Origin: Eubacteriales bacterium
GTDB taxonomy: Bacteria; Bacillota; Clostridia; Oscillospirales; QAKW01
Direction: 5' to 3'
NCBI GenBank assembly: GCA_045636365.1
Contig: JAZTXG010000012.1
Span: 6,559-70,558 of the forward strand
Length of the DNA: 64,000 nucleotides
The translations under genes and the position numbers were made by a program. The notes under the pieces are model-generated. The model was not told where the DNA came from and did no database searches. It worked only from the letters and a program-made list of their open reading frames with translations. Shown here piece by piece: positions 1-52,881 of the stretch (positions are counted from its first letter, which is position 1; each line of letters opens with the position of its first letter).

Positions 1-3000
1 TCAAGATCTCGCTAAAGGCAAAATCGAATTCCGCAATACCTCCATCGAGCACCTTAAAGACCAGAACGATTGCATCGAACTCACTGTTTGCCGCAATGTT
101 GGCTGCATTGCTCCAAGCGGCGGTGAAGGTACCGTCTTCTTCATTTACTGTTTGATTTTTGTTCGCGCCGAAGGCGTCGGTCAGAGTGATGGACTCCAGC
201 TTCAACAAGTTCTTATTATAAGAACCGTTGATGGTCATACCGCTCCACGCATTCAGATAATCCTTGACCGAAACGGTCACAGTGACGGTATCGCCAATCT
301 TCGCATCGGTCTTATCAGCAGTAGCAATCAAATGGGGCTGCGCCTTGACATTGACAACAACCGTTTCGCTGCGCTCCTCATAATCCCAGACAGAAACCAT
401 CGGCTCTTCGTCGAAGGCGATTGCCTGATCGATCTCTGCATAGAAGGAAATTTCACCTTCGACCTTCGGGCTATAATAGAGATTCATTAAGGTGAGGGCC
501 GTCTCTGTTGAGATGTAGTCTGTGGACACCAAAATGAAATGAACGTATCCTTCGTCCTCATTCAGGAAAACCACTCCGGTCACATCGTCCCTATCGCTCT
601 GCCACTCATCGATATCCTCTTGGTCGATGGTAACCTCGCTCTTATCATAGTACAACTTCACCGAAAGCGCTTGCACGCGATTGTTGAGGTTGTTGACAGT
701 GAGTGTCAGGGCCTCTTTCCTATTCTTGATCGCAGCATCCGCAGTGCCGATCGACAGGAACATCGGATCCATATTTTCATATTGGTTTGCGATCGTGATG
801 ATTTGATCCTCTGCCTTGGGAGCGTAGGTTTGGGTATCGACTACGGTAAAGCCGCCGTTCGAATCGGGGGTCTTAACACTGTCTGTTACAAACCCTGCAC
901 CGAATTTGGCTTCGCCGTCTTGGTATGCTTTGAAGGGGATGGAAGCAAGCAAGATCTGCTCGCGGTCATCCTGAATGTTCTCAAGGGAGATCCAGGTAAA
1001 GACAATCTTGCCGTCTCCGGAGCGGAGCAATACCTGAGCGTCCTCTCCGCCCAGCGGATTGCAGACGATATCGCTCTCTTTGATGCGGATCCGCTCTTTA
1101 TCAAATTCCAAAACGACCGGAACGGTGCACCATTCGCTGCTATATTCATTCAGATAAAGATGGAGAACACTGTCGTCGCCTTCATCCATCGCGTTGCCCT
1201 TTTCGAGGACCATGGTCAGATGAGGGAATCTTATTTTTTTAGCGTCAACGATGAGCGCCTCGGCATCCGCCACATACTCATAGGGGTCCACATCGACATT
1301 CGCGTTGCCGTCGAAGGTCTTGACCTCGGTCAACGCTGCATCGAACTGCACATCGTCTTTAAATCCGTTTGTCTTGAAGGTGATGCTCAGAAGGGTGTTG
1401 TCCTTTTCGGCATCGATATTCGCGGCGCCTGCGGGGAAGACCAAAGAGATCTTACCGTCGACCGAAGTATCTACCGTCGGGGTAATTCCGCCAAAGGCCT
1501 TGGGAACAACCTCCTCGATGGTAAATACGCTTGCATCGTAGCTCAGCTCTGCGCTGAAGGAAGACCACAGATCGCTGTAGTCCTTCAGTTTCAGCTCCAC
1601 AGTGTACTCTTCACCCTCTTGAGCTTTGCTTTCGCCGACAATCTCCAAGAAGGTAGGAGCAAACAAAACAACCGGCGCGGACACAGGCGCTTCAGAGTAA
1701 GAACCTTCCGGCGCATACATTCCGCCATCGGTGGCAGGATCTTCCACAATGATACCGTTCTCGGGGAACGCGAAGGAAACGTTGGGATCGCCTTCATCAA
1801 GAACCTCAAAGACGAGTGTCATCGCTTCAAAGTTTCTACCCAAAGCAACAGCCTCATCGTTCATCCAGGCAGCCTGGATCGTACCAGGCTTGGTTTCGTC
1901 TGCCTCGAAGTACGCGAAGCCGTCGACCGAAGAAGTTGCTTCGATGAACTTCAGCTTCGTTTGATCGTAGTTTGCGAAGATGGACATTCCCAGCCAATTG
2001 TCTTGATATTCCGAGACATTGACGGTGTATGTAATTTGCTCGCCGACCTTGACGCGATCCTTAGAAACCGTTGCTCCCAAATGAGCTTTGGAGTTATCGA
2101 TTTCCAAAATAACCGTATCGCTCACTTCAGTCGCATCGTACCAACTCTCGGGAGCGTACTCTCCGTTGGCATCCAGAATTCCGTCGGGAACAAAGGAGAA
2201 GTTGAAACTTGCTTCGCCTTCCGCCAAAACGTCGAAGACGATTACCAATGCCTCAAAATTCGGATTTTCGGTCACGATCGCATCAGCATGTGCCCAGCAG
2301 ACCTTGATCTCGCCGTTTTCGTTTTTGATCTCCGGCTCGATGACCTCGTCCTGGAAATTTTTAGGAGTGATGGTCTTCACCGCGAGCTTGGCGGGATCAT
2401 AAGTTCCTTGAATGGTCATCGCGGACCAAAGATTTGCATAATCCTTAACGTTTACACGAACGGTAACTGTCTTGCCGACATAAGCGCTGTCTTCATCCAC
2501 TTTGACTTCCAAAGAGGTTGTGACATCGTTATAAAGCAACTCTACCGTATCGGATACCTTTGCATCGGCGGCATAGGTCTCGGTGGGGACCTTATCGCCG
2601 TTTTCGTCCAGAACTCCGTCGGGGATAAAGGAGAATTCAAATTTCTCTGTAGTGTTTTCGCCGGACAAGACCTTAAAGGTCAGTTCCATTGCGGTAAACG
2701 TATCGTCTGCCATAACAACGGTATCGTCGTTGAGCCAGTTCACCGCTATTTTACCGTTTTCATCTGCAATGACCGGCTCTCCGGCAATTCCGCCATCGCT
2801 GAAAGCGGCAAATTTGCTTTCTTCTTCAATCAGTTCAAATTTTTTGGCGTCATAAGTACCCATGATGGTCATGACCGCCCAATTATCTTTGTAGTCCACT
2901 ACGTCGACCTTGACGGTGATGGTCTCGCCGAGCTTGGCGGAGTCTTCCACTACATCGACGTTCAGCATCGTTCCCTGCACAGAAGGAGCGATCGCGATGG

Positions 3001-4399
3001 TCGCTGTTTTTTCTGCGCTGTCAAAATTGGAAACGAACTCGCCGTTGGCATCTGCAATACCGTCGGGAACAAAGGAGAAGGAAAGGTTGGCATCGCCTTC
3101 TTCCTTCACCTTGAAGGTCAGGGTCAGCGCGGAGAACTCCGGCTCCATATCGACTGCGTCGACATTAATCCAGGTCACACCCAGAACGCCGTCGATGCTA
3201 TCTTCAATCACCGCTTCGGTGCCGGAGATGGTATCTTTAAAGTCGATCGGCTCGACCTTTTGCAAGTCTAATTTATCTTTATCGTAGGATCCCTTGATGG
3301 TCATGGTCGACCAGGCATCTGCATAGTCCTTGACATTGACGATGACGGTAATTTCGCCGCCGACTGTCGCGGTAGAAGGAGCAACCACTTCCAGCCCCAC
3401 AAGGGTGGTGGACTCGCTGATGACGATCTCTTTTTCTACAGGCTCTTTGGAAAAACCGGTGGTAATTTGATCCGTTTCGTTTTCGCCGAAGATGCCGTCC
3501 TCTATGAAGGAGAAGGAGAGGTTGGCATCGCCCAGCGCTTTGACATTAAAGGTCAGAGTTAAGGCTTTGAATTCTGCATCTACGTCATCGACAATATTCT
3601 CATTGACCCAGACCGCCGAGATGGTTCCGTTTTCGACCTTAAAGATGGAGTCTTCCATGATTTCGCTGTTCTTAAACGTACCCTTGACGGACCGTTCTTC
3701 GTCCAGCTCCAATACATCCTTGTTGTAAGAACCGCGGATGGAGAGGGTCGACCAATTCTTGGCATAATCCTTGACCCAGACTTCGACGGTAATTTCATCG
3801 CCGACCACCGCAGTAGACGGAACAACCACGTCCAGATAAGTGGGAGTGGCCGTATCGATCGTGATGGTTTCGGTCGCCGGCTCTACACTGTATTTCGCTG
3901 TATCCAGCGGAGCAGAACCGCCTTCGGCCGCGACCAACATTTCGCTTTCCACAAAGTTGAAAGAGATCTCCGCCTCGCCCAACGCAGCATCCGCCTTGAC
4001 GGTCAGAGGAACAACCATTAAGGTCGCACCCTCTTCCGGAGCCACATCCGAAGTGGCAACCCAACCCGCAAGGATCTTGCCGCCCGAAATATCTGCGTCC
4101 TTGACCGTCAGCTCGGTATCGCCGACGTTAAAATCATATGTCTCCGGTTCGCCATCGGGCGCGAAGAGGTCGGTGCTGTATGTACCTGCAACCGCCATCC
4201 CGCTGAGAGCGACCGTATTATGAATCGTGACAACAGCGTTGACCGCATCCCCGGGCGCGACAGAAGTCAGCGGATTGCCTTCGCCATCCACCAATTCCAC
4301 CTTCAGTTCCATCGGGTCAGAAAGCGCCGAGGAAAAGACGGACGCCATAGAAAGCAGCATAACGATTGTCACAATTGTTGCTCCTATACGTTTGAACAT
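1..4399 (-). CDS. Secreted scaffoldin-like protein with a signal peptide and about ten tandem cohesin-like modules. The 3-prime end is cut by the window edge, so it is at least 1466 aa.
   Basis: Absent from the supplied ORF track because it runs off the window. The reverse complement of 4380-4415 reads GGAGGAtctctATGTTCAAACGT. Hand translation gives MFKRIGATIVTIVMLLSMASVFSSA (signal peptide). This is followed by repeated units of about 150 aa such as VVVPSTAVVGDEITVEVWVKDYAKNWSTLSIRGSYNKDVLEL...LTLTFNVKALGDANLSFSF. I checked the frame as open at 4399-2900, 2460-2390 and 190-119. The plus-strand ORFs here (for example 539..3271) look like antisense shadows. Confidence 0.8.
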   Translation of the reverse strand, partial: MFKRIGATIVTIVMLLSMASVFSSALSDPMELKVELVDGEGNPLTSVAPGDAVNAVVTIHNTVALSGMAVAGTYSTDLFAPDGEPETYDFNVGDTELTVKDADISGGKILAGWVATSDVAPEEGATLMVVPLTVKADAALGEAEISFNFVESEMLVAAEGGSAPLDTAKYSVEPATETITIDTATPTYLDVVVPSTAVVGDEITVEVWVKDYAKNWSTLSIRGSYNKDVLELDEERSVKGTFKNSEIMEDSIFKVENGTISAVWVNENIVDDVDAEFKALTLTFNVKALGDANLSFSFIEDGIFGENETDQITTGFSKEPVEKEIVISESTTLVGLEVVAPSTATVGGEITVIVNVKDYADAWSTMTIKGSYDKDKLDLQKVEPIDFKDTISGTEAVIEDSIDGVLGVTWINVDAVDMEPEFSALTLTFKVKEEGDANLSFSFVPDGIADANGEFVSNFDSAEKTATIAIAPSVQGTMLNVDVVEDSAKLGETITVKVDVVDYKDNWAVMTIMGTYDAKKFELIEEESKFAAFSDGGIAGEPVIADENGKIAVNWLNDDTVVMADDTFTAMELTFKVLSGENTTEKFEFSFIPDGVLDENGDKVPTETYAADAKVSDTVELLYNDVTTSLEVKVDEDSAYVGKTVTVRVNVKDYANLWSAMTIQGTYDPAKLAVKTITPKNFQDEVIEPEIKNENGEIKVCWAHADAIVTENPNFEALVIVFDVLAEGEASFNFSFVPDGILDANGEYAPESWYDATEVSDTVILEIDNSKAHLGATVSKDRVKVGEQITYTVNVSEYQDNWLGMSIFANYDQTKLKFIEATSSVDGFAYFEADETKPGTIQAAWMNDEAVALGRNFEAMTLVFEVLDEGDPNVSFAFPENGIIVEDPATDGGMYAPEGSYSEAPVSAPVVLFAPTFLEIVGESKAQEGEEYTVELKLKDYSDLWSSFSAELSYDASVFTIEEVVPKAFGGITPTVDTSVDGKISLVFPAGAANIDAEKDNTLLSITFKTNGFKDDVQFDAALTEVKTFDGNANVDVDPYEYVADAEALIVDAKKIRFPHLTMVLEKGNAMDEGDDSVLHLYLNEYSSEWCTVPVVLEFDKERIRIKESDIVCNPLGGEDAQVLLRSGDGKIVFTWISLENIQDDREQILLASIPFKAYQDGEAKFGAGFVTDSVKTPDSNGGFTVVDTQTYAPKAEDQIITIANQYENMDPMFLSIGTADAAIKNRKEALTLTVNNLNNRVQALSVKLYYDKSEVTIDQEDIDEWQSDRDDVTGVVFLNEDEGYVHFILVSTDYISTETALTLMNLYYSPKVEGEISFYAEIDQAIAFDEEPMVSVWDYEERSETVVVNVKAQPHLIATADKTDAKIGDTVTVTVSVKDYLNAWSGMTINGSYNKNLLKLESITLTDAFGANKNQTVNEEDGTFTAAWSNAANIAANSEFDAIVLVFKVLDGGIAEFDFAFSEIL

Positions 4400-4488
4400 A
4401 GAGATCCTCCTTCAAATACGCACTTATAAAATAACCAAAAAAGGGTATAAATACCCCTAACGGTACGTATCCATTATTAGTTATTAAT

Positions 4489-4766: not shown

Positions 4767-4799
4767 AAAAGTGCGTCAGGAGTTCCTGACGCACTTTTT
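4766..4799 (-). terminator. Rho-independent (bidirectional-looking) terminator downstream of the 4801-5640 gene.
   Basis: AAAAAGTGCGTCAGGagttCCTGACGCACTTTTT: a perfect 10-bp GC-rich stem flanked by an A-run and a T-run, immediately after the TAA stop at 4801. Confidence 0.75.
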
Positions 4800-4800
4800 A

Positions 4801-5640: not shown

Positions 5641-5670
5641 GCTCATCCTCCAACTAAATTATTGTCGCTA

Positions 5671-6192: not shown

Positions 6193-6285
6193 GTTTTTTG
6201 ATACCTGTTCTTTCTTTTTCCCTTGGTTTCTTTCGTCAAAAACGGCTGCAGGCGGAAATTCGCCGGCAGCCGCCTAAAAATTCAT

Positions 6286-7347: not shown

Positions 7348-7584
7348 AGATATATCCTCCAAAAACTATATTTGGGGTTTATTGCTCAAATATCGCCGGT
7401 CTTTTTTTGCAGGCCGGAGATAGTTCAGCCATAAACCAAAACAAATGTTTTTCGGGGCGCGGCGGCTGCAAGGATGCTCGCCGCGCCGATTTTTCATGAA
7501 AAACGAATTCGCTTAATGTAAGCTTGGCAGCATGCCAAGGGCGGATTGCCGCCCTTGGCAAACTGCTTTAGATTAAAGGATTAA

Positions 7585-8151: not shown

Positions 8152-8242
8152 TTTTTAAGTCTCCTTAAAATAATTTTTTATATTTGACCGCTTAACGCTC
8201 CTTGCAGCGCAAAAGCGGCTAAATACCTTAAATAAGTTTGAT

Positions 8243-8794: not shown

Positions 8795-8815
8795 CGGGGA
8801 CCTCCTGCGTTATTC

Positions 8816-11296
8816 TTAAACTGCTTTATCAATAGTCACTGTAATGGTGCCGAGCACCGTCTTCGTATCGGTCGAAAGTTCTGCGCCGGCGGGCAGGTCG
8901 CCCAACTCAAATTGAACCGTTGCCGAATTATATGCATCGCCTTCGGCCTTATCGACTGTCAACGACGATACTGCAGTTCCATCCTGCTCGAATGTATGGG
9001 TCAGCCCGACAAGGTCGGTCTTCTCCGGGTTTACAGCAAATTCAAACGTCGCTGTAATATCAACCTTACCTTGGTTGGTGACGGTGATCCAATTTTCGGC
9101 TTCGCTGTCTGCATTTAAGCAGGTCCAACCGCGGCCATCCCAAATATGGTTTTGGGGATCCCAGGTGCCGAAAGAATAGGTAAATGCCATTGCGCCCCAT
9201 TCGATTTTCACCGAAATTTCCGACGCGGCCGTTTCGATCTTGACTTCGACTTCGGCGGGAGTATCTGTATAGTTATCGCCATCCAGCTCTGCGCCGTTTT
9301 GATAGTTTCCGCCTTCAAGAAACGCTACAGAAACGAACCGGCGAAGTTGCTCTTCGGTCAGGTCTTCCTGCCTTACTTTCAGCGTAAATACCATAATGTC
9401 TTGATTCGGCAAGTACATTGGCAAAGGATCGCCGTTGAACCAGCAGGCAAGCAACGTTCCTTTGGCGTGTTCGGTGATGAACTCGGAATGAGCGCCTTCA
9501 CCATCGTCGTTAAACGCGTTCTTATCTTCGACAGAAACAAACTCGAATACGTCGGAATCAAACAACGCCTTGAGGGTCATTACTTCCCAAGCGCTTGTAA
9601 AATCCTTGATCGAGACAGCAAAACGAACTTCTTTGCCCTGCTCAATAGCGCCGATTTCTTCCCCTTCGGGAACATCCACGCCGTCGATCTGATCGATCCG
9701 GATGGAGAGTTCGGGCTTGCCACGAACGGTTATGGGCTTCACGGCAGACGTTTCGATATAACCGGCAACATCATCGCCGGAAAGGTTACCCCCCGCCAGG
9801 AAAGAGGCGGTGATGGGGAATTCGGATCCGTCTACCGTATAATCACTTTTAATTGTTATGGGGATCTCAAGGATCGTTCCGCTTGAGGCGCCCAGCTTGA
9901 GATCATCGCCTTCTTCAGAGAAAATGGTGATACCAAGTTTGTTTCCGCTAATCACCGGCACAACGGCGACATCACTGTCGCCTAATGCAACGATATTATC
10001 CGTATCTACCTCAAAAACGTTTTTATTGAGGTTGACAAGGATACTCATCATCGACCACGGATCAACATAATCAGTGATGTTCACTTGAAGAGTGAATTTC
10101 TCACCGCGAGAAAAGGCGGGTTTATCTTCCTCAACCACTACAGATAAGTAGGGGAACACCTTCTGCGTTACCTTGACTTCAGCTGTACCCTCTTCGTGCT
10201 CTTCAACATAATCGTCGGCGGAGGTCAGCAGTTCTTCTTCGCCTGTCGCGGCATCGTATTTAAAGTTGCCTTCTTGCTGGAAAGAGGTCCCGATTTCGAG
10301 CGCGCTTCCCGCGCCTTGGGCTTCCAAGGTCAGCTCCAGAATATCTGCATCGGATGCACCGTCTTTCAGAATCATATTGCCCAAAGAGGGGCTGAAGAAG
10401 CAGATTGAAAGCGGTTTTGCAGCATCTTCGGTCTCTGCCACCAGCATGGAGACGGGATCCGAAGTTTCGGAGTCAACAAGATTTCCTAAGTCTTCCGAAC
10501 TTATATACTTGAATTTATTGCCATTGTATTGAAGGTCCAGAGTCATCATCATCCAGCCTTCGTAGAAATTGTTCAGGCAAACGATTGCTTTGACTTTTTC
10601 CCCTTGCTCAATTTCGGTAACCGGATTTCCGCTCTCATCCACCAACCGCATGGTCAGATGCGGCTGATACACACGGACCTCTCTTTCAAAATCGGAGGTG
10701 GCGGCATAAGCTTCGGTAGCGATGAACTCCGGTTCGTCACCAACATACCCCGCGACACTATCGTCTACAAAGGTAAAAGAGAGTTTCGCGTTATCGGTCT
10801 CCGCAATTGCTTTGAATTTCAAATCCATCAATGCGGCAGTTCCCTCTACGGCAGGGAGGTTGGTGCCTTGATTGCTCATCATAAAAACCATCAAGGAACC
10901 GCTTGCTTTATTAGACTCATCAATCGAGAGGGTGAACTCCTCGCCGATCTTCGTTTCAAAACCCTTATATTCCAGCTCCGCCGGATCATAGGTCAATTCG
11001 GCAACAAAGATCGCCCAATCGCCCCTATAATTTTCCAGCGAGACAGAAATATCAAACTCTTCGTCCAGCGAAAGATGCTCTTTCTCTGTACTCATCACCA
11101 CGGAAGTCGGCTCAGAGCCGCCTTCGGTGTTTAACAATGCGGGCTGCTCGGAAGCGTAATTATTCAGTTGAACTGTTGCATCCAACGCATCGCTCTCAAG
11201 TACGCTTTCGTCGGCAGCAGAGACGACAAAGACCGAGCATACCATGGAGCAGAGCATTGCCAGCGCAACAGCGATTGACCATACACGCTTATTCAC
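8816..11296 (-). CDS. Secreted protein with four cohesin-like modules and a divergent copy of the shared CTD.
   Basis: ORF track 8816..11365. GGAGGtatttcGTG makes GTG at 11296 the likely start (VNKRVWSIAVALAMLCSMVCSVFVVSA signal peptide). The module signatures are ISVSLENYRGDWAIFVAELTYDPAELEY, AIVCLNNFYEGWMMMTLDLQYNGNKFKY, LQVNITDYVDPWSMMSILVNLNKNVFEV and FAVSIKDFTSAWEVMTLKALFDSDVFEF. The CTD at 8819-9217 reads ISVKIEWGAMAFTYSFGTWDPQNHIWDGRGW...ITVTNQG...GTITVTI. Confidence 0.85.
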   Translation of the reverse strand: MNKRVWSIAVALAMLCSMVCSVFVVSAADESVLESDALDATVQLNNYASEQPALLNTEGGSEPTSVVMSTEKEHLSLDEEFDISVSLENYRGDWAIFVAELTYDPAELEYKGFETKIGEEFTLSIDESNKASGSLMVFMMSNQGTNLPAVEGTAALMDLKFKAIAETDNAKLSFTFVDDSVAGYVGDEPEFIATEAYAATSDFEREVRVYQPHLTMRLVDESGNPVTEIEQGEKVKAIVCLNNFYEGWMMMTLDLQYNGNKFKYISSEDLGNLVDSETSDPVSMLVAETEDAAKPLSICFFSPSLGNMILKDGASDADILELTLEAQGAGSALEIGTSFQQEGNFKYDAATGEEELLTSADDYVEEHEEGTAEVKVTQKVFPYLSVVVEEDKPAFSRGEKFTLQVNITDYVDPWSMMSILVNLNKNVFEVDTDNIVALGDSDVAVVPVISGNKLGITIFSEEGDDLKLGASSGTILEIPITIKSDYTVDGSEFPITASFLAGGNLSGDDVAGYIETSAVKPITVRGKPELSIRIDQIDGVDVPEGEEIGAIEQGKEVRFAVSIKDFTSAWEVMTLKALFDSDVFEFVSVEDKNAFNDDGEGAHSEFITEHAKGTLLACWFNGDPLPMYLPNQDIMVFTLKVRQEDLTEEQLRRFVSVAFLEGGNYQNGAELDGDNYTDTPAEVEVKIETAASEISVKIEWGAMAFTYSFGTWDPQNHIWDGRGWTCLNADSEAENWITVTNQGKVDITATFEFAVNPEKTDLVGLTHTFEQDGTAVSSLTVDKAEGDAYNSATVQFELGDLPAGAELSTDTKTVLGTITVTIDKAV

Positions 11297-11376
11297 GAAA
11301 TACCTCCACACAAAACTTTCAAAATGAATGAACCCCCGCGCCATATTGCAAAGGGGATACTTCAACCATTGACTTT

Positions 11377-11440
11377 ATTATAGCAGAGCGAAAAACAAAT
11401 TTACATTGCTTTATGTTGCTTTTTTTAAACGATTTGCGTC
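11377..11440 (-). promoter_or_regulatory. Putative promoter of the 8816-11296 / 8243-8794 unit, with the conserved upstream element (copy B).
   Basis: On the minus strand, TGcTATAAT has its -10 at 11382-11377. A 16-nt spacer follows, then the hexamer GTAAAT at 11404-11399. The element at 11405-11440 is ATTGCTTTATGTTGCTTTTTTTAAACGATTTGCGTC. Confidence 0.45.
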
Positions 11441-17116: not shown

Positions 17117-17205
17117 GCCGGTGTGGCGGAACTGGCAGACGCCCGGGACTTAAAATCCCGTGGGTAGCGATACCCGTACCGGTTCGATCCCGGTCACCGG
17201 CACCA
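17117..17205 (+). tRNA. tRNA-Leu (anticodon UAA), class II with a long variable arm and an encoded CCA.
   Basis: Acceptor GCCGGTG/CACCGGC. Anticodon stem CGGGA/TCCCG with loop CTTAAAA (anticodon TAA). Variable arm TGGGTAGCGATACCCGTA. T-arm CCGGTTCGATCCCGG. The 3-prime end is ACCA. Confidence 0.9.
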
Positions 17206-27178: not shown

Positions 27179-27199
27179 ATATCATTTTGGAGTTTTGCT

Positions 27200-28318: not shown

Positions 28319-28340
28319 ACTTCTTTAAGGAGGGTTCCTT

Positions 28341-29564
28341 TTGAAAAATAAAATTGCCATCAATACGGCTATGCTTTATTTTATGAATATAGCCAAATTG
28401 ATCTTCCCGTTTCTGACACTGCCGTATCTCACCCGTGTCCTTTCGGTGGATAATTATGCCATGGTATCCTATGTCAAATCCACCATGCAATATATGCAGT
28501 TGATCGTCGACTTCGGATTCCTGCTTTCGGCCTCCTCTGCCATTGTTCTTGCGGCAGGGGATAAAAAGAAAATCGGCAGCATTGTCAGCAATACCGTTCT
28601 TGCCAAATTGATGTTGACCTTCTTTTCGTTGCTGACATTGGTTGTCCTTTCTTTCTCCATCCCGCTGCTGCGTCAAAATCTGCTTTTTGTTTTCCTTTCC
28701 TTTGTCACAGTGGCGCTTTCCGGTTTTTTGGTAGATTATCTCTTCCGCGGATTGGAGCAGATGCAAGAAATCACCTTCCGTTTTGTCTTAATGAAAGGGA
28801 TCTCCACCGCACTTACCTTTGTTTTTGTGCATAGTGATAAGGATATCTTATGGATTCCCATTCTGGATATTTTGGGTACGCTGGTTTCCTTGGTCTTGGT
28901 TTGGGCGCGGGTTAAAAAATATCAGCTTCCCTTTGTCTTGCCCAATCTGAAGGAAGCTTGGGTGCAACTGAAGATCTCCTTCACCTATTTTCTCTCCGAT
29001 ATTGCCACCACCGCCTTCGGGGCGTTGAATACCTTATTGATCGGCATTCTTTTGCCCACTGCCCAAGTGGCGTTATGGAGCGTTGCGCTGCAAATCATAT
29101 CGGCGGTGCAGGTAATGTATTCTCCCATCATCAACGGAATTCATCCCGAAATGGTGCGGAGCAAGAGCGCGCGCTTGCTCAAAAAGACCGCGTCGATATT
29201 TATGCCCATCGTTTTGGTCGGAAGCGTTGCCTTGTTCTTCCTCTCCGATACCGCCATTTTGATCGTTGGCGGAGCCAAATATCTGCAAGCATCCCCCATT
29301 TTGAGATTTCTCATCCCCATCTTGGTGTTCAGTTTCCCTGCGATGCTGATCGGTTGGCCGGGGCTGGGTGCGCTGGGTAAAATCAAAGAGACGACCGCCA
29401 CCACCATCTTTTCGGCCGTTTTCCAATGCGCCGGTCTTGGAATCTTGATTGCCTGCGGGCAATTTACCATTATCAATCTTGCCATATTGCGGGGGCTGAC
29501 AGAACTGATGCTCCTGCTTTCCAGACTCTTCTTCTGCTGGAAATATCGCAAACAATTTGCATAG
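28341..29564 (+). CDS. wzx: Polysaccharide flippase (Wzx, MOP superfamily).
   Basis: A 407-aa ORF. RBS AAGGAGGG lies 6 nt before the TTG start. It has about 12 TM segments and an N-terminus IAINTAMLYFMNIAKLIFPFLTLPYLTRVL typical of polysaccharide biosynthesis (Polysacc_synt) proteins. Confidence 0.7.
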   Translation: MKNKIAINTAMLYFMNIAKLIFPFLTLPYLTRVLSVDNYAMVSYVKSTMQYMQLIVDFGFLLSASSAIVLAAGDKKKIGSIVSNTVLAKLMLTFFSLLTLVVLSFSIPLLRQNLLFVFLSFVTVALSGFLVDYLFRGLEQMQEITFRFVLMKGISTALTFVFVHSDKDILWIPILDILGTLVSLVLVWARVKKYQLPFVLPNLKEAWVQLKISFTYFLSDIATTAFGALNTLLIGILLPTAQVALWSVALQIISAVQVMYSPIINGIHPEMVRSKSARLLKKTASIFMPIVLVGSVALFFLSDTAILIVGGAKYLQASPILRFLIPILVFSFPAMLIGWPGLGALGKIKETTATTIFSAVFQCAGLGILIACGQFTIINLAILRGLTELMLLLSRLFFCWKYRKQFA

Positions 29565-47197: not shown

Positions 47198-47231
47198 AAA
47201 AAGGCACCTTCCTTGCGGAAGGTGCCTTTTT
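47198..47231 (-). terminator. Rho-independent terminator after the giant dockerin-protein gene.
   Basis: AAAAAGGCACCTTCCttgcGGAAGGTGCCTTTTT, 14 nt after the TAA at 47245. Confidence 0.8.
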
Positions 47232-47244
47232 ATTTGTTTAATTA

Positions 47245-50200
47245 TTATGCTGCGAGGGTGCGAACAAGCCATTCGTGAACGATTGCATAAACGTCAGCAA
47301 TCGCGAATTCGCCGTCCTCATTCATATCAGCATTCTTCATATTGATGGGTTTTGCATCAAGCTTTTCAGCCTTGACATACAATGCTGCGAGAGCATCGGC
47401 CAAATTAACATCGCCGTCACCGTTTGCATCGCCCAGGACACCGTCGAAACCAATGGTCGCAGTTGCGCCCGGAATTTCGATGGTGGTGCCTTCGGCATCG
47501 TTTGCTTTAGCACTCGCCACCTCAACTTTGAAGGTACCGCCCACGGCAGTAACATCTGCTGCGATGGTAACAGTTACGTCATCGCCATTGGAAACTGCAT
47601 ACTCGCCGCCGTTCCACTCAACACCATTGACATGGGTAATGGTATATGCGCCTTCGATGGTGAAGGTCAATACAGCAGTCGCCAGATTTTCAGGCAGGTC
47701 GATGACGATATCGCCATTTCCCTTGGGATTCAAGGTGATACCTGCTGCAGAAGCAGTGCCATGAATCTTATACTCTTTGACCAAGCAGCCTTCGTGTGCA
47801 CACTGTCTGTAAGACTTATTTGCATCGTCATCGTCTTCTTTCCAGCCTTCGCCGCCTTCGAAGTCATGGCCATTCTCTTTAGTTTCTTCGGCCTCTACCA
47901 TTGTGGGGTGAATCTCACAATCGAATTTCCAGAAATCGTTTTCGGTACAGTCTTCGTTGTGGACTTTTTTACCTTGGCAGGTTTCCTCATAATCGGCCCC
48001 ACAAGGTTCGCAATGAGCTACGTGTTTGCTCTCGCCGGTTGCCGAAATGGCGGAATCGTAATCCCAGTCTCTGGTGCAGCTTTCGGTCTTGGTATAACCG
48101 CAATCACCGCAAGCATAGGTATGCTTGTTTGTTTCATCCACATGGTTGCACTCGAGATTGGGATGTTCACAGACATCGATGGTTACAACGATAGCTGCAT
48201 CTTCGGTAACGGTCAGCGCGGTACCATCATATGCACCGCCCGAAGCGACTTCAACATTGACGATGGTTGTCTCGACACCATAGCCGAGTGCATCGCGCAG
48301 TTCCGCGTTTGTATATGCCTGGTTGGCATTGATATAGATGGTCTTGGTTTCCTCGCCAATGGTGGCTTCAACCTTGACAATCTTATCGGTTTCTGTACCG
48401 GTCGGGCGGATACCGCCATCCGCGGCCAGTTTGAAGTAGACGTCGCCTTCTGCTCCGGTGTTGGTTTTGTTGATCTCATAAGCTGCTGCACCTTCGGTCA
48501 TATCGCTATGAACCCAAGGATTATTTGCGCCGGCACCTGCGGTTGCACTTGTTCCAACACGATAGGATTGGGTGATATCCCCTACACCGTATACATTGCT
48601 TATATTCGCCGAGGCTGCAGTAAAGGCATCCTCGTCGGTAAAGCCAAACAGGTAAGCGGTCGCATTATCGGGATTTTTATTTGTCAGATTGATAACAATG
48701 TTTTTGAAAGAACCATTATCAGCCTGACCGGTGCTACGTCCGCCGTAAACACCATAGGCAACGTTTCTGTTGAAACCAGATTCATGGGGGTCTGTTTTAT
48801 TCACCGTTCCGTAGAAAGTAAAGCCGTCTACATTTACTACGGTTTCAGCATTGTCTGCATAAGCGCCTGCCAATGCACTAATATGATTACCTTTCACAGC
48901 CACAAGTGTTGCGCCGGACCAGACCTTATTAAAGGTCACAGTAGCTTCTTCATTAACAGCACCAAAGGTCGAAACGTTGGACGAAGCGGTGCCGGTAGTT
49001 CCGCGCATTGTACCGCTGTTGATACCAAATTCGGTAATAGTAGCTCCATCGAGAAGCGCAAACAGACCGACGTGGTTGTTTATATAATCAGCCTTGGCTC
49101 CCGGCTCGCCAACCTTAATGTTTTTAATATAAACATTCTCAAAGCCATAGCCATGACCGTTGATGGTACCGGCGAAAAATCTCAATGTACCGGCATCATC
49201 AGCATTACCCTTGCTACCCAGAGGCCACATATAGTCTGTATTTATTTCAGCCTCTTCGTCTTCGGTTGCAGCCGTATTATCTTGCGCGAAGTCGATATCA
49301 TCGATCAGGTGGAAGGTGGTATTTTCGAAATATGCACCTGCTTCGCCATCATTTGCTGCTTTATCCATTGCAAACCAGTCGGCTTTGTCTACGATCAGCC
49401 AGTTGGCTTTTGCGGGTTGATAATTCTTATATACATCGTAATCTTTGAAAGCGGGGATGCTATTCAAATATGTGGTCTCATCGAATGTCGCGGGCGCATC
49501 GTTGATCTCGATGAGCAAAGTGCCGCCGTTCATATGAGCAACTGCAGCTTCCAGCTCGGCCTTTTCTTCGCTCGTTGCCAACTCAAGCCATGCGTCCATA
49601 CCGATTTGGCCTTCGCCGGGAGTCTTGAAGTATTTAGCGTCGAATTTGGCGTTTGCCTGCAAAGCTTCGATTTCAGCAATCTTAGCTTCCAGTTGAGCTT
49701 TCAGATTGTTGATTTCTTGTTCATCATCGCCGATGGTGTAGGAAACGGTTACATCGCCTTCGATGAGATAGTTGCCTTCGCCATCCGGGTCGATCGGAGT
49801 AGGAGTTTCTTCTACGAGTTTAGAAACCACAATGTCTGTTGCACCGTTGGGAAGCAGCGCCGCTACGTCAACTGCAGCGCCAGCATTCGCATAGATGGGA
49901 TCTGCCTCTGCGTTGTTTTCCATAATGGCATACTTCACAATGCGGTCTGCTTTATCACCAAAGCGGATATCGCCGTTTTTGTTGATGGTGAAGTAGACCT
50001 CACCAATACCGCTTGCAGCGGGTTGGGCGTTGTTGATCTCCCATGCACCGATCTTATCGGAGTCAACTTCTCTATTGTTGACAGTTGTTCCTCCTGAAGT
50101 ATCGCCGCCATTTCGATAGATCGGGGCGCCTACGCTAAAATTATTGATCGCCACATAGTCCGAATACTTACTATCCGAAACATACAACGACATTGTGTCT

Positions 50201-52539
50201 GCAGGGGTACCCAGGAAAGTGGGCTTACTCAATGTGTTGTAAACATATACCGTTCTCAAGTACTGCATAATGCCGATCGCACTAGAGGATGTACTCAGCT
50301 TGCCAAAGAAATAAGCACCATTGATAGTAACCGATTGCTGCTGAGCGCGGCATACGATACCGGCAACCAAGTTGCCAGAAGATGTAATTGTTGCTCCGGA
50401 CCAGACTTTGTTAAAGGTGGGGCCGACCGAGCCGGATTTATTCGGGGCACCGAAGGTGGCAACATATCCTTCACCAGTGATACTACCGCTATCCACACCG
50501 AATTCATTGATGACCGCAGCCCCAGTCGGTGTATTGATCAAACCGAGTTCTGCGTCGTTGGAAGTAATGCTGATGTTTTGGAAGGCATTAAAATGCCCTT
50601 CAATGGTACCAGCAAAGGCACCGGTCACCGGTTTCATCGGCACTTCATTGAAATTGATATTGTCGGTTACGTGGAAGGTGTAACCTGCGAAGGTCTCTCC
50701 ATCTTCAGAAGCGTCAATCACCGCCAACCAGTCGTCGTCCTCGTTGATTGCCCAAACGTCGTTTTCGTTGTACTCGCCGAGGACATCAACCAAAGAATAG
50801 CCGGGGATCCGGTTCTCGGTTTCATTATAGGTTTCGTAGGTCTTCAGGGACAATTCATTGATTGCCTTAAGTTTTTCAGAAGCCGGAGCATTGCCGCTTA
50901 CTGTGCCTGCGACAGTTCCCAGATCAGCAGCCGACTCATTGGTCAGATAGGTCTCGTAACCATTATCCAAAATGGTTTGGTATTTTGCCCAAGCTTCAGT
51001 CACCTGCGTATTTTCATCGATGGTGACGGTGAATGTTGCATCACCTGTCAGCTTCCATCCTTCACCCTCTACAGTGGCACCGGTGATGTCACCAACAGTA
51101 ACCGCTTCTGCAGGAAGAGCACTATCAACGAGCTTAGCCAGATCGTCTTTTTTCAGTGTGTCGCCGTTGTTGACGTAGTCGAAATAATTATTCGTGCCGT
51201 CAGTCACCTTCACCTGAACGATTCTATTAGATTCTTTACCGGTCGGGCGGATGACAATGTTTTCGTTGGAGTCTTTCGTCCAGGTGTAGTAGACGGGAGA
51301 CATTGCTTCGCCCTTGGTATAGGATTTAGATACATATATATATTTTTTTACCGACGCAGTGTTACTATTGATCTTCCATGCGCCTTCTTCGGGGGAGCTA
51401 ACCGTCTCGCAACGTTCACCCAAATTTCTATCTGCAGTACAAGCCGGGTCAGTAAGGCTATAACAGTTTTCCAGCACACCATTGCCGTTTGCATGAAAGC
51501 CCGCTTCAATTGTTTGTACGCCGCCCTCGCCGACTGTAGAAGCGTCCAGCGAGTTATAAGTGGTTGTCGTGTTAACGTAACTTTGAAGACCGTAATTGCC
51601 GTAACTACCGGTCAGCTTACCGGAGAAATAAGCACCATTGATAGCTATATGGGTGCTTGCTATATGCCCTACAATACCTGTGGGCATGCCTCTAGTGAAG
51701 TTTTTTGAGGTTGCTACAAGCTCTGCGTTGGACCAAACCTTGTTTAATTCGGCATGTTGGTCAGCGGTTCCTCCAACCGGCTCGCCGAAGGTGGCGACAA
51801 TTACATAGGCCGCCTTGCCGGTCGCTGTAATGGACCCGCTATCGACACCGAATTCATTGATCTTAGCCTTGGGGCCCAGCTTACCGATCATACCGAGGAC
51901 ATAGTTGATTTTTTTAGTGTCATCTTTCAACTCGTATGTTACCGTGATATTTTTAAAGGCATACCCATGGCCTTCGATGGTACCGTTGAACGGACAAGCA
52001 GCGGCGTCACGCGCATCAGATGCGCTCAAGTTCAAGGGAGCCACCGGATCCTCGCCGGTAAAGTCAATGTTTTTGGTTACGTGGAAGGTGTAACCTTCAA
52101 ATTCGTTGGTGGCAGAAACATTAACCATCTCCCGCCAGTCTGCAGGAGCAGAGATGGACCAATTATTCCCCTTCGCGGCACTATAGCCTACCAAATCAAA
52201 CTCTTCGTGAAAAGCATAACGGGGATATTTTACGGAATCACCGTCGAAGTTCTTCCACTCGATTTTTTCCTCATCAAAGAGGCTATTCATCAGTTCTTCG
52301 ACGCTATCTTCCCCGTCGACATTATCGTCTTTTTTGTATTTTCCGGCATAATAAGCGTCTAAAACAGCCCCCATGTCCGGATCTGTGTTGTAGTCGACGA
52401 TTGCTTGGACAACCTTTTTCCAAGCATCTTCTTGATCTGGAGCCGCTGCGCTTGCGGGGATAACAAAGCAAGCCAGCATCGAAACCAGCATCGCAACGAC
52501 AGCCAAGATCGAAAGGACTCTTGTTCTTGTTGTGATCAT
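47245..52539 (-). CDS. Giant secreted surface protein (1764 aa): three GLUG/beta-helix-like modules, a Cys/His-rich segment, an Ig/cohesin-like module and a C-terminal dockerin.
   Basis: RBS AAGGAGG lies 9 nt before the ATG. Signal peptide MITTRTRVLSILAVVAMLVSMLACFVIPASA. The three modules are marked by GYTFHVTKNIDF...FNGTIEGHGYAFKNITV, GYTFHVTDNINF...FAGTIEGHFNAFQNISI and TTFHLIDDIDF...FAGTINGHGYGFENVYI. Each is followed by (I/V)(N/T)EFG(V/I)(D/N)SG(S/T) and FNKVWS. Confidence 0.9.
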   Translation of the reverse strand: MITTRTRVLSILAVVAMLVSMLACFVIPASAAAPDQEDAWKKVVQAIVDYNTDPDMGAVLDAYYAGKYKKDDNVDGEDSVEELMNSLFDEEKIEWKNFDGDSVKYPRYAFHEEFDLVGYSAAKGNNWSISAPADWREMVNVSATNEFEGYTFHVTKNIDFTGEDPVAPLNLSASDARDAAACPFNGTIEGHGYAFKNITVTYELKDDTKKINYVLGMIGKLGPKAKINEFGVDSGSITATGKAAYVIVATFGEPVGGTADQHAELNKVWSNAELVATSKNFTRGMPTGIVGHIASTHIAINGAYFSGKLTGSYGNYGLQSYVNTTTTYNSLDASTVGEGGVQTIEAGFHANGNGVLENCYSLTDPACTADRNLGERCETVSSPEEGAWKINSNTASVKKYIYVSKSYTKGEAMSPVYYTWTKDSNENIVIRPTGKESNRIVQVKVTDGTNNYFDYVNNGDTLKKDDLAKLVDSALPAEAVTVGDITGATVEGEGWKLTGDATFTVTIDENTQVTEAWAKYQTILDNGYETYLTNESAADLGTVAGTVSGNAPASEKLKAINELSLKTYETYNETENRIPGYSLVDVLGEYNENDVWAINEDDDWLAVIDASEDGETFAGYTFHVTDNINFNEVPMKPVTGAFAGTIEGHFNAFQNISITSNDAELGLINTPTGAAVINEFGVDSGSITGEGYVATFGAPNKSGSVGPTFNKVWSGATITSSGNLVAGIVCRAQQQSVTINGAYFFGKLSTSSSAIGIMQYLRTVYVYNTLSKPTFLGTPADTMSLYVSDSKYSDYVAINNFSVGAPIYRNGGDTSGGTTVNNREVDSDKIGAWEINNAQPAASGIGEVYFTINKNGDIRFGDKADRIVKYAIMENNAEADPIYANAGAAVDVAALLPNGATDIVVSKLVEETPTPIDPDGEGNYLIEGDVTVSYTIGDDEQEINNLKAQLEAKIAEIEALQANAKFDAKYFKTPGEGQIGMDAWLELATSEEKAELEAAVAHMNGGTLLIEINDAPATFDETTYLNSIPAFKDYDVYKNYQPAKANWLIVDKADWFAMDKAANDGEAGAYFENTTFHLIDDIDFAQDNTAATEDEEAEINTDYMWPLGSKGNADDAGTLRFFAGTINGHGYGFENVYIKNIKVGEPGAKADYINNHVGLFALLDGATITEFGINSGTMRGTTGTASSNVSTFGAVNEEATVTFNKVWSGATLVAVKGNHISALAGAYADNAETVVNVDGFTFYGTVNKTDPHESGFNRNVAYGVYGGRSTGQADNGSFKNIVINLTNKNPDNATAYLFGFTDEDAFTAASANISNVYGVGDITQSYRVGTSATAGAGANNPWVHSDMTEGAAAYEINKTNTGAEGDVYFKLAADGGIRPTGTETDKIVKVEATIGEETKTIYINANQAYTNAELRDALGYGVETTIVNVEVASGGAYDGTALTVTEDAAIVVTIDVCEHPNLECNHVDETNKHTYACGDCGYTKTESCTRDWDYDSAISATGESKHVAHCEPCGADYEETCQGKKVHNEDCTENDFWKFDCEIHPTMVEAEETKENGHDFEGGEGWKEDDDDANKSYRQCAHEGCLVKEYKIHGTASAAGITLNPKGNGDIVIDLPENLATAVLTFTIEGAYTITHVNGVEWNGGEYAVSNGDDVTVTIAADVTAVGGTFKVEVASAKANDAEGTTIEIPGATATIGFDGVLGDANGDGDVNLADALAALYVKAEKLDAKPINMKNADMNEDGEFAIADVYAIVHEWLVRTLAA
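47248..47433 (-). other. Type-I-like dockerin module (two EF-hand-like Ca-binding repeats) at the C-terminus of the giant protein.
   Basis: GDANGDGDVNLADALAALYVKAEKLDAKPINMKNADMNEDGEFAIADVYAIVHEWL contains duplicated D-x-N-x-D-G-x-x-x-x-x-D loops, each followed by a helix. Confidence 0.75.
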
Positions 52540-52617
52540 AAGTCACATCCTCCTTAAAATTATTGATTTTGTATATTTTTTGCATATTTGCAGATACAAA
52601 ACCAGTATTCTGACTTC

Positions 52618-52682
52618 ATTATAATAAAGTTCCGCCGATTTGCAAATTACCTTATGTTGCTTTTTTCACACGATTTGCATAC
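52618..52682 (-). promoter_or_regulatory. Putative promoter of the giant dockerin-protein gene, with the conserved upstream element (copy C).
   Basis: On the minus strand, TTGCAA is at 52645-52640 and TATAAT at 52623-52618, separated by a 16-nt spacer. The element at 52646-52681 is ATTACCTTATGTTGCTTTTTTCACACGATTTGCATA. Confidence 0.5.
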
Positions 52683-52851: not shown

Positions 52852-52881
52852 AAAATCCGTTCGGCGAACCGAACGGATTTT
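52852..52881 (-). terminator. Rho-independent (bidirectional-looking) terminator after pck.
   Basis: AAAATCCGTTCGGcgaaCCGAACGGATTTT. Confidence 0.75.

Follow-up and report, generated by a model that had tools for sequence, protein, structure and literature searches.

A secreted dockerin protein with three beta-helix modules, a putative cargo of a cohesin-dockerin complex in an uncultured gut Clostridia lineage

The locus and its genomic setting

The window, that is, the whole 64-kb stretch of DNA analysed here (64,000 nucleotides), derives from an uncultured Clostridia/Eubacteriales gut lineage, described as herbivore and gut Clostridia. It carries a gene for a large secreted protein that ends in a dockerin and, 41 kb away, three scaffoldin genes (2-11365) with at least 15 cohesins among them (Table 1). 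The dockerin gene starts with ATG behind a ribosome-binding site and stands as a singleton among housekeeping genes, its neighbors encoding a 2-hydroxyacid dehydrogenase and, upstream, PEPCK. A terminator scan places a hairpin (52852-52881) after the PEPCK gene, which implies that the dockerin gene has its own transcription unit; a likely bidirectional terminator follows the stop codon. The encoded protein begins with a predicted Sec-type signal peptide, called by inspection from its basic N-region, hydrophobic core and ASA-type cleavage site, and the N-termini of many family members conserve this peptide (phmmer E 1e-9 to 1e-15). An identical protein (P0001) is present in NCBI data, encoded on an 80.9-kb contig, and a scan of a genome collection returned only relatives, in other MAGs.

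The genes that the initial annotation had called cohesin-like encode real cohesins according to both Pfam and a cohesin HMM. The 849-aa scaffoldin showed no sequence match to solved structures. A promoter element common to these genes and the dockerin gene had also been proposed, and this too was borne out: the pattern GCAAATCGTNTNAAAAAAGCAACATAA occurs in both places with zero mismatch at its 25 specified bases, and it was matched 0 times in 100 shuffles. Exactly 28 nt separate the core of the element, GCAACATAA, from the TATAAT box of the dockerin gene, and core and spacing recur upstream of homologs in five other MAGs. Exact matches of the element with fixed spacing numbered 0 in JGI metagenome contigs. 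Rfam detected no known RNA element in either leader, its sole match in the window being a tRNA. The dockerin and scaffoldin loci would be co-regulated by a factor that binds the shared element at about -41 to -67.

Table 1. Coordinates of the features at the dockerin and scaffoldin loci and the basis on which each was called.
Feature	Position	Strand	Basis
Gene for 1764-aa secreted multi-module dockerin protein (stop codon included)	47245..52539	-	ORF list
Promoter-proximal element GCAAATCGTGTGAAAAAAGCAACATAA, 27-nt pattern with 25 specified bases	52652..52678	-	identical to copy at 11411-11437(-)
Sigma-70-like promoter (TTTGCA, 17-nt spacer, TATAAT)	52618..52646	-	consensus scan 10/12, consensus match only
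Ribosome-binding site AAGGAGG	52549..52555	-	9 nt before ATG, read from sequence
Predicted signal peptide, aa 1-33, MITTRTRVLSILAVVAMLVSMLACFVIPASAAA	52441..52539	-	sequence inspection
Module 1, aa ~96-507: N-cap, beta-helix, small beta-grasp-like domain	51019..52254	-	module HMM envelope aa 98-474; homology to modules 2 and 3
Module 2, aa ~571-936: N-cap helices, right-handed beta-helix ~594-825, helix 828-837, beta-grasp-like 849-936	49732..50829	-	AF2 and Foldseek
Module 3, aa ~1021-1456: most divergent copy, with insertions	48172..49479	-	module HMM envelope aa 1019-1420; pairwise E
Cys/His-rich region, aa ~1457-1588, repeated H-x3-C-x2-C-x7-C knuckles	47776..48171	-	invariant H and C columns in 13 homologs
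Cohesin-fold beta-sandwich, aa ~1589-1700	47440..47775	-	directly upstream of dockerin; Foldseek
Type-I-like dockerin, aa 1702-1764, two intact Ca-binding loops	47248..47436	-	Pfam PF00404
G+C-rich palindromic hairpin with T-runs, likely bidirectional terminator	47198..47231	.	after stop codon; terminator scan, 15-bp stem, 7 G-C pairs
Second element copy, upstream of 4-cohesin scaffoldin gene	11411..11437	-	pattern match GCAAATCGTNTNAAAAAAGCAACATAA
Scaffoldin with 4 cohesins, 849-aa ORF, likely true start GTG near 11296	8816..11365	-	Pfam Cohesin 54.3 bits; four cohesin HMM domains
Single-cohesin protein, 358 aa	6286..7362	-	Pfam Cohesin 31.1 bits; cohesin HMM
Giant scaffoldin, at least 1470 aa, at least 10 cohesins, C-terminus cut by window start	2..4411	-	translated open frame; ten cohesin HMM domains

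Three copies of a beta-helix module

The body of the protein is made up of three copies of one module, and as judged by blastp between segments their similarity is far beyond chance (modules 1 and 2, E 4.3e-33 with 39% identity; modules 1 and 3, E 1.8e-21; modules 2 and 3, E 6.1e-23). The repeats were shown by segment-wise blastp and phmmer; self-blastp of the whole protein gave no off-diagonal HSPs. Marker motifs are TFH (aa 151, 621, and 1075), GTI(E/N)GH (186, 644, and 1124), EFG (229, 679, and 1170), NKVWS (266, 710, and 1204), GAWKIN/GAWEIN/AAYEIN (386, 831, and 1352), and IVQ/IVK/IVK (440, 867, and 1387). Each of the motifs quoted in the initial annotation recurs exactly three times with a period of ~450-470 aa. 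The module size of 450-500 aa given there fits the repeat period including linkers, not the module, which has a core of ~330-400 aa (~365-435 aa when the small C-terminal beta domain is counted).

The modules match no Pfam or NCBIfam model, NCBIfam giving zero hits. The GLUG HMM (PF07581) matches neither the whole protein at E<=1 nor 25 family modules at E<=10, and a Pfam scan of these 25 modules at E<=10 returned only scattered single matches, none of them GLUG; strictly speaking, the protein thus does not count as a GLUG-motif protein. Among PDB sequences, a module profile found no meaningful match, the top one being a MACROD2 fusion tag (E 0.94). The same profile matches 1153 proteins, the distant ones aligning over the N-cap and first rungs, and 13 of 42 distant matches carry Pfam GLUG somewhere along the protein. 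Of the earlier proposal of GLUG/beta-helix modules, the beta-helical fold and a putative distant GLUG-type relation (Foldseek, and the matches just mentioned) are supported, while the GLUG motif itself, as defined by the HMM, is not. Searching the literature for GLUG in combination with dockerin turned up no relevant work.

An AF2 model of aa 545-945, covering module 2 (pLDDT 84.1, pTM 0.84), was compared with known structures by Foldseek. The modules are each modelled with an N-cap, followed by a right-handed beta-helix that falls in the GLUG / IgA1-protease-NTD class and, last, a small domain resembling ubiquitin; the extent of the beta-grasp domain in module 1 was set by analogy with the module 2 model. 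The best Foldseek match is the beta-helix of IgA1 protease (6xja_P, prob 1.00, E 5.7e-3, TMq 0.33, 329 columns; the scores are modest), with 7uvl_P and 7uvk following at prob 0.98-0.99, and sequence identity between module and IgA1 protease is about 11-14%. The C-terminal subdomain of module 2 retrieves ubiquitin-like domains. A phage tailspike or depolymerase origin of the beta-helix was considered and rejected: the BFVD matches, the top ones of which include a phage 'putative IgA1 protease', are weak, the best is again IgA1-protease-like, and the gene lies among housekeeping genes.

With the N-terminal domain of the Gram-positive M26 IgA1 metalloproteases (Streptococcus pneumoniae 6XJA, Gemella haemolysans 7UVK) and with GLUG proteins, the modules share a right-handed beta-helix that is small (about 250-290 aa) and capped, and a motif of the N-cap and first rung (W.I...DW/..L, F.L..DIDF, F.GT(I/F).G.GH.(F/I).N). 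Unlike the IgA1 proteases, the protein lacks an M26 peptidase domain and any G5 or LPXTG context; its later rungs depart from the GG(L/I)xG pattern, a ubiquitin-like domain comes after every helix, and the whole unit is present three times. The IgA1 protease beta-helix is non-catalytic, binds the Fab of IgA1, and gates the active site (PMC7695701).

The C-terminal region

The initial annotation had recognized the three modules and the dockerin and had missed what lies between them, a Cys/His-rich region and a cohesin-fold module. The former is modelled as beta-hairpins (pLDDT about 80-90) and weakly resembles the Zn site of Fur/Zur proteins (E 0.1-0.4); its knuckles are putative Zn-ribbon-like hairpins, which would bind metal. 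The beta-sandwich that follows (AF2 pLDDT about 90) has almost exclusively cohesins among its top Foldseek matches (E 3.8e-7 to 1e-5, prob 1.00, TMt 0.45-0.59), led by 6kgf_A (E 3.8e-7) and 5n5p_A (1.2e-6), then 4dh2_C, 2vn6_A, 2xdh, and 2jh2, with Calx-beta and Ig-like folds also in the list. Pfam Cohesin (PF00963) did not match aa 1589-1700 at E<=1, and an HMM built from the 15 cohesins of the window gave iE 0.44 (hhalign P 0.051). Against the C-terminal cohesins of relatives, which occupy the same position, hhalign returned P 1.2e-4 (Prob 54%, 61 columns).

The dockerin is bona fide, as had been claimed: Pfam Dockerin_1 (PF00404) matches aa 1702-1750 with 26.2 bits against a GA of 22.9, and solved dockerins are recovered (CelS 2mte, E 8.5e-5; 1daq, 8.8e-5), the family profile matching 1daq at 1.3e-5 and the Ruminococcus flavefaciens group I dockerin 5m2o_B at 1e-4. 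The duplicated Ca-loop signature DANGDGDVNLAD...DMNEDGEFAIAD at 47293-47430 is the only one in the six frames of the window. Both loops, DANGDGDVNLAD and DMNEDGEFAIAD, are EF-hand-like, with D/N at positions 1, 3, 5, and 12, and each is followed by a helix. In the AF2 model the dockerin forms loop-helix pairs, with helices at model residues 274-284 and 308-324 and a short one at 295-298 (pLDDT about 90).

In X-module-dockerin dyads, such as those of Clostridium thermocellum CipA and of R. flavefaciens CttA and ScaB, the dockerins are of type II/III. The arrangement found here is similar in that a beta-sandwich directly precedes the dockerin, to which it could give support. It differs in that the sandwich resembles cohesins in Foldseek, not Ig-like X-modules, and in that the dockerin matches the Pfam model for type I and solved dockerins of type I / group I.

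Proposed function and relation to known systems

On balance, we think it probable that the protein is secreted, lacks catalytic activity, binds multivalently, and is carried as cargo by a surface complex of the cohesin-dockerin kind, similar to a cellulosome. Its reading as cargo has good support, attachment to the scaffold being predicted: the protein has a signal peptide and a dockerin, and the same genome encodes at least 15 cohesins. The Ca-dependent dockerin would insert into one of the cohesins of the genome, specificity for those of the window being assumed, and the three beta-helix modules would therefore be displayed on the scaffold. They would act as ligand-binding or targeting surfaces, as the beta-helix of IgA1 protease does for its protein substrate, and would attach the complex multivalently to a glycan or protein substrate; we infer from this a role in adhesion. 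The overall architecture is conserved among homologs. In close relatives the module is fused to a GDSL esterase (7/35) or to an EEP domain (12/35), a single module copy being followed by the dockerin and then the enzyme, a layout in which accessory binding modules are normally deployed. There the module would target the fused enzyme, and the protein studied here would therefore be an enzyme-less, multivalent version.

The initial annotation had started from the premise that dockerins usually tether enzymes and had read the locus as a repurposed system. The premise does not hold in R. flavefaciens FD-1, where only about 50% of the dockerins accompany CAZymes and 118 dockerin proteins contain unknown domains (PMC2930009); the dockerin proteins of R. 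bromii follow the same pattern (PMC4611034). Because non-CAZyme dockerins are so numerous in Ruminococcus, a repurposed system does not follow. That reading was overstated, the more so as the protein's own family is often fused to enzymes.

The modules could instead be enzymes themselves, of an undescribed polysaccharide lyase or hydrolase family or similar, which would make the protein an ordinary enzymatic subunit of a cellulosome, with the catalytic unit repeated three times. The right-handed beta-helix is indeed the scaffold of PL1, PL3, PL9, GH28, and CE8, and generic catalytic beta-helices, the pectate lyases 7xks, 1jta, and 1ee6, appear in the Foldseek list (prob 0.33-0.69); the fusion to GDSL esterases in relatives is a pairing typical of pectin or xylan degrading multi-enzymes, and about half of the Ruminococcus dockerins are carried by CAZymes (PMC2930009). 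However, the high-probability structural matches are to the non-catalytic helix of IgA1 protease, and among 25 modules (22-41% identity) no column of the helix rungs has Asp, Glu, Lys, or Arg at >=75%; what is conserved is an Asn ladder and structural Gly, Phe, and Trp, with Ser, Thr, and His in the cap. Searches of Pfam, NCBIfam, and PDB sequences gave no match to a catalytic family, in agreement with the earlier claim that a recognized catalytic domain is lacking, and 3-4 tandem copies with linkers are what one sees in binding repeats and not in catalytic domains. A non-canonical site may still permit catalysis where conserved charged residues are lacking; even so, the modules are probably non-enzymatic, and we regard the catalytic alternative as unlikely.

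Two further alternatives concern the C-terminal end. If the cohesin-fold module were functional and bound dockerins of its own family, the protein could form a head-to-tail daisy-chain or act as an adaptor scaffoldin, giving beta-helix fibers or branched assemblies on a primary scaffold. The cohesin fold is the top structural match of the sandwich, at least 20 relatives in the wider family have a sequence-detectable cohesin 26-49 aa before a C-terminal dockerin, and in R. bromii Amy4 the protein's own cohesin is bound by its own dockerin, a precedent for self-recognizing multimerization (PMC4611034). Against this, beta-sandwich folds converge easily, as the Calx-beta and Ig-like matches illustrate, and the cohesin sequence signal is essentially lost in the subfamily of the protein, so that the sandwich may be a degenerate cohesin that gives only an X-module-like support to the dockerin; this alternative seems improbable to us. 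Alternatively, the dockerin might not serve scaffold attachment at all, the protein being secreted but free, or anchored in some other way, and the likeness of the promoters only that of a common strong housekeeping-type promoter of this lineage. The isolated position of the gene between housekeeping genes would fit, as would the observations that in other MAGs the cohesin genes are never adjacent to module-family genes, that the element lies upstream of only 6/19 family genes there, and that the second Ca loop is degenerate in some homologs. Yet both loops are intact in the protein itself, bacteria that produce cellulosomes normally have their dockerin genes scattered (PMC2930009), and within the window the element is confined to the cohesin gene and the dockerin gene, and we consider this alternative very unlikely.

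Cargo of a cohesin-dockerin complex, the reading we prefer, has its closest counterparts in the SIGN-UNK-Doc and LRR-Doc proteins of R. flavefaciens FD-1 and the dockerin proteins of R. bromii, in which a signal peptide and a C-terminal dockerin likewise flank a large body that is not a CAZyme. As in the cellulosomes and amylosomes of Ruminococcus, the dockerin gene is dispersed from the scaffoldin cluster and multi-cohesin scaffoldins are encoded in the genome. Unlike the Ruminococcus components, the body consists of three copies of an unmodelled beta-helix plus beta-grasp module and is followed by a Cys/His-rich region and a cohesin-fold module before the dockerin; the systems also differ in that the cohesins of the window match no solved cohesin by sequence and in that the host belongs to uncultured Clostridia. 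Amy4, which joins GH13, cohesin, and dockerin, resembles the protein in having a cohesin-type module and a C-terminal dockerin on one polypeptide, which could self-associate or adapt, whereas Amy4 is an amylase whose cohesin is clear from its sequence and the present protein has no enzyme and a cohesin recognizable only by fold and position.

Cohesin-dockerin systems are usually read as enzyme-organizing machines. The lineage studied here has a very large scaffold, with at least 15 cohesins, and one abundant cargo family built from an unmodelled beta-helix module that is found either alone, in 3-4 copies, the case of the protein at this locus, or, in relatives, fused to GDSL esterases or EEP phosphodiesterase-type domains. 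A far-reaching and distinctly doubtful extension would see in this a previously unrecognized class of cohesin-dockerin cargo in uncultured gut Clostridia, in which the cohesin-dockerin tandem ends polymerize head-to-tail into beta-helix fibers on the scaffold while a dedicated activator at the A-tract-GCAACATAA drives both the dockerin gene and the scaffoldin operon; if true, cellulosome parts would build a self-assembling adhesive appendage, not an enzyme complex. The conserved promoter-proximal element offers a concrete handle on the regulon and its regulator. What is new here is the module family, whereas the kind of system is familiar, non-enzymatic dockerin proteins being already numerous in Ruminococcus, and a known theme is extended without overturning current understanding. 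Defining the ligand of the module would reveal what these complexes target, be it plant wall, mucin, other microbes, or host proteins, and would add a new family of accessory modules to cellulosome biology.

Beta-Helix Modules of the 1764-aa Protein

The sequence motifs described in the initial annotation are all found in the 1764-aa protein, where TFH, GTI(E/N)GH, EFG, NKVWS, (G/A)A(W/Y)(E/K)IN, and IV(K/Q) each occur exactly three times and in register. The three modules are indeed diverged copies (pairwise blastp E 4.3e-33, 1.8e-21, and 6.1e-23), although the size of 450-500 aa assigned to them is the repeat period including linkers, and the module core spans ~330-400 aa. The protein has few homologs: among 5.8 billion proteins, a word-indexed search returned only 14, all from uncultured Clostridia/Eubacteriales MAGs (e.g., from goat rectum and roe deer colon), and most of the closest hold three to four module copies according to an HMM of the three modules.

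An alignment of 25 module instances was used as input for an AlphaFold2 model of aa 545-945, which was confident (pLDDT 84.1, pTM 0.84) and consists of short N-terminal cap helices, a right-handed beta-helix (model residues ~50-280), one helix, and a small mixed beta domain (305-392). The best Foldseek match in the PDB is the IgA1 protease of Streptococcus pneumoniae (6xja_P; E 5.7e-3, prob 1.00, 329 columns), with 7uvl_P and 7uvk, the latter an enzyme of G. haemolysans, next (prob 0.98-0.99); below these come generic beta-helix enzymes with lower probability, and the C-terminal subdomain draws ubiquitin-like matches. A viral structure library agrees with the PDB and includes a phage "putative immunoglobulin A1 protease." In a profile search of 1.84 billion representatives, 1153 relatives were found at E<=1e-3, 74 of them reaching 1e-30. 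Alignment of the distant relatives is limited to the cap and first rungs, with the consensus Y.I.T..DL ... F.LT.DID ... F.GTFDG.GH.I.NL ... GLFG, and 13 of 42 carry Pfam GLUG. The GLUG model itself (PF07581) matches neither the protein at E<=1 nor the 25 family modules at E<=10. The proposed beta-helix kinship is thus supported while the strict GLUG motif is not, and the module appears to be a divergent, unmodelled branch of the GLUG / IgA1 protease-type beta-helix superfamily.

The statement that the protein lacks an enzyme domain agrees with the Pfam scan, in which Dockerin_1 is the sole match, and with NCBIfam, which gives none. We regard a catalytic role of the beta-helix modules as improbable. 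Neither the protein nor its modules match catalytic families by sequence in Pfam, NCBIfam, or the PDB, and no acidic or basic residue is conserved at >=75% in any column of the helix rungs of the 25 modules (22-41% identity to the second module). Polar conservation takes the form of an Asn ladder (module residues N196, N224, and N255), with conserved Ser, Thr, and His in the cap and first rung. Among 35 close relatives scanned, Dockerin_1 was found 16 times, Exo_endo_phos (EEP) 12, Lipase_GDSL_2 seven, and Cohesin four times, and single-module relatives show either a module, an internal dockerin, and a GDSL esterase (in one case also DUF4886), or a module, a dockerin, and an EEP domain. Such layouts are typical of accessory targeting modules, an argument for regarding the module as a binding unit and the 1764-aa protein as its enzyme-less, trivalent version. 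In the IgA1 protease, the beta-helix (residues 781-1070) is a small domain without catalytic function that binds the Fab portion of IgA1 and acts as a gate to the active site (PMC7695701). Beside homolog P0008, three EEP genes are clustered, one encoding a 1340-aa protein with a faint dockerin match; in this lineage, cohesin-dockerin cargo seems to include EEP enzymes repeatedly.

Dockerin and Cohesin-Fold Module of the C-Terminus

The C-terminus does carry the duplicated Ca-loop signature, for which translation of the window in all six frames gives no second instance. Dockerin_1 scores 26.2 bits over aa 1702-1750 (gathering cut-off 22.9), and solved dockerins are matched by sequence, namely CelS of Clostridium thermocellum (2mte, 1daq; E ~9e-5 alone, 1.3e-5 with the family profile) and the group I dockerin 5m2o_B of Ruminococcus flavefaciens (E 1e-4), making the dockerin assignment solid. 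In several homologs (P0004, P0005, P0029) the second Ca loop is degenerate or contains insertions (columns ~355-375 in an alignment of 13 homologous C-termini, e.g., NANVDNPTENPVASDITIADV) and the first remains canonical, a sign that some family members may have dockerins that are truncated or have a single binding mode.

The same alignment reveals features absent from the initial annotation: Cys and His residues in an invariant arrangement at aa ~1457-1588, where H-x3-C-x2-C-x7-C knuckles are repeated, and a conserved beta-rich domain between this region and the dockerin. An AlphaFold2 model of aa 1440-1764 (pLDDT 86.1) contains beta-hairpins, a beta-sandwich (model residues 149-259), and the dockerin helices. 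Its top Foldseek matches, all with prob 1.00, are cohesin modules from cohesin-dockerin complexes: CohA2 of C. acetobutylicum (6kgf_A, E 3.8e-7), ScaB Coh5 of R. flavefaciens (5n5p_A, E 1.2e-6), OlpC (4dh2_C), and those of C. cellulolyticum (2vn6_A), A. fulgidus (2xdh), and C. perfringens (2jh2). Pfam Cohesin has no match in the protein, and an HMM of the window's own cohesins matches the sandwich weakly, in the right place (iE 0.44; hhalign P 0.051). At least 20 wider-family relatives contain a sequence-detectable cohesin 26-49 aa ahead of a C-terminal dockerin, to which the sandwich aligns with P 1.2e-4 (Prob 54%). The modelled sandwich therefore has a predicted cohesin fold and is probably a degenerate cohesin module, which may merely support the dockerin or may still bind dockerins. 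There is a known precedent in Amy4 of R. bromii, whose dockerin binds its own cohesin so that the protein multimerises (PMC4611034). For the present protein, a more far-reaching reading, in which beta-helix proteins polymerise into fibres through their own cohesins and dockerins and are controlled by a dedicated regulator, is improbable.

Gene Setting, Scaffold, and Shared Promoter Element

The gene has a putative promoter of its own, and predicted terminators lie on both sides, one of them a hairpin 3' of the upstream PEPCK gene, so it is probably monocistronic (Table).

Table. Features of the window and of family loci (L numbers) in other MAGs
Feature	Position	Strand	Details
Dockerin protein ORF	47245-52539	-	1764 aa, ATG start
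Ribosome-binding site	9 nt upstream of ORF		AAGGAGG
Sigma-70-like promoter	52646-52618	-	TTTGCA-17-TATAAT
Palindromic terminator	47198-47231		after stop codon
Signal peptide	52441-52539	-	MITTRTR(V/I/L)LSILA.VAMLVSMLA
27-nt pattern GCAAATCGTNTNAAAAAAGCAACATAA	52652-52678; 11411-11437	-	0 mismatches at 25 specified bases
Giant scaffoldin	2-4411	-	at least 1470 aa; runs off window start
281-aa protein	4801-5646	-	signal peptide; Pro/Glu/Asp-rich linker
358-aa scaffoldin	6286-7362	-	Pfam Cohesin 31.1 bits
188-aa protein	7585-8151	-	
849-aa scaffoldin	8816-11365	-	Pfam Cohesin 54.3 bits
tRNA gene, single	17117-17202	+	sole Rfam match in window
Low-G+C block	26001-28000		G+C 0.415 vs ~0.50; AT skew -0.23; spans ORFs 25664-29564
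A(n)(G/A)CAACATAA(A/G)G	L001 280-292; L002 3719-3731; L003 7990-8002; L005 6080-6092		also upstream of L010 and L011 genes
Tandem arrays	L007 1242-13021; L009 642-13093		also L003, L005, L008, L013
EEP gene cluster	L014 1153-7640		

The gene is a singleton between a 2-hydroxyacid dehydrogenase and a DUF362/ferredoxin gene on one flank and the PEPCK and an rRNA adenine dimethylase gene (RrnaAD family) on the other. In other MAGs, homologs have housekeeping genes as neighbors or form tandem arrays with dockerin-bearing paralogs, and at the loci examined none adjoins cohesin genes; such dispersed siting is the normal arrangement for cellulosomal cargo genes. The arrays comprise two to three paralogous genes with one module and a dockerin each, and there are several paralogs per genome. 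The signal peptide is shared with the N-termini of P0002, P0005, P0009, P0029, and other homologs from different MAGs (phmmer E as low as 1e-15 across ~33 aa), an unusual conservation that exceeds the normal need of a signal peptide. Elsewhere in the window, the low-G+C block, with its strongly negative AT skew, may hold horizontally acquired or surface-polysaccharide genes.

The cohesin-like platform noticed earlier consists of real cohesins. All scaffoldin genes form one minus-strand cluster (2-11365), in which an iterated HMM counts 10 + 4 + 1 = 15 cohesins as a lower bound, at least 10 of them being repeats of the giant scaffoldin (translation of 1-4800). The C-terminus of the 281-aa protein of this cluster, a NADTGD motif with a hydrophobic stretch and an RKKSKEE tail after it, resembles a sortase-type cell-wall sorting signal whose motif is non-canonical; this protein is a candidate for anchoring the system to the surface. 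The 188-aa protein, the C-terminal half of the 358-aa scaffoldin, and the C-terminal ~170 aa of the 849-aa scaffoldin share a conserved domain (e.g., NEWN..THKWDV.E.G.WS...LTVNIENHS..DVK.SL.Y.D..GGAETALKAAVEDV) that has no Pfam match; the platform proteins may share it for attachment or assembly.

The promoter element reported to be common to the dockerin gene and the cohesin genes 41 kb away is borne out by identical specified bases in both copies and by the lack of any match in shuffled sequence, and the distance from the GCAACATAA core to the TATAAT box is exactly 28 nt in both. Six of 19 family genes in five other MAGs, all of them large multi-module genes, are preceded by an A-tract-(G/A)CAACATAA core whose distance to a TATAAT/TAAAAT box is also 28 nt. 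The element is kept in no fewer than six MAG lineages, where it precedes large multi-module dockerin genes and one scaffoldin gene. Rfam detects no RNA element at these leaders, and no exact copy was found in JGI metagenomes. Lying at ~-41 to -67 relative to the implied start, the element would be a candidate activator or UP-type site and not a -35 box, and its conservation suggests a lineage-specific regulator. Since the element occurs at scaffold and cargo genes and is kept in other MAGs, their co-regulation is plausible and would be evolutionarily conserved.

Comparison with Known Dockerin Systems

The initial annotation, noting that dockerins usually tether enzymes, suggested a system repurposed for surface display or adhesion. 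No more than about half of the dockerins in R. flavefaciens FD-1 are found alongside CAZymes; 118 of its dockerin proteins contain 155 domains without a known function, together with 28 LRR modules, serpins, and transglutaminases, and roles in cell-surface structuring have already been proposed (PMC2930009). Similarly, the majority of the 26 dockerin proteins of R. bromii are non-amylases (PMC4611034). A dockerin protein without an enzyme is therefore already known from these species and no evidence for a repurposed system. The observations of the annotation (ORF, modules, and dockerin) hold, and its interpretation is partly supported. What is new is a module family without any Pfam or NCBIfam model, a conserved tail that joins a Cys/His region, a cohesin-fold module, and a dockerin, and a lineage-conserved promoter element shared with a scaffoldin gene. 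On balance, we slightly favor a secreted protein whose three beta-helix modules would provide non-catalytic, trivalent binding, whose genuine dockerin would attach it to the multi-cohesin scaffold encoded by the same genome, and which would be expressed with that scaffold under common regulation.
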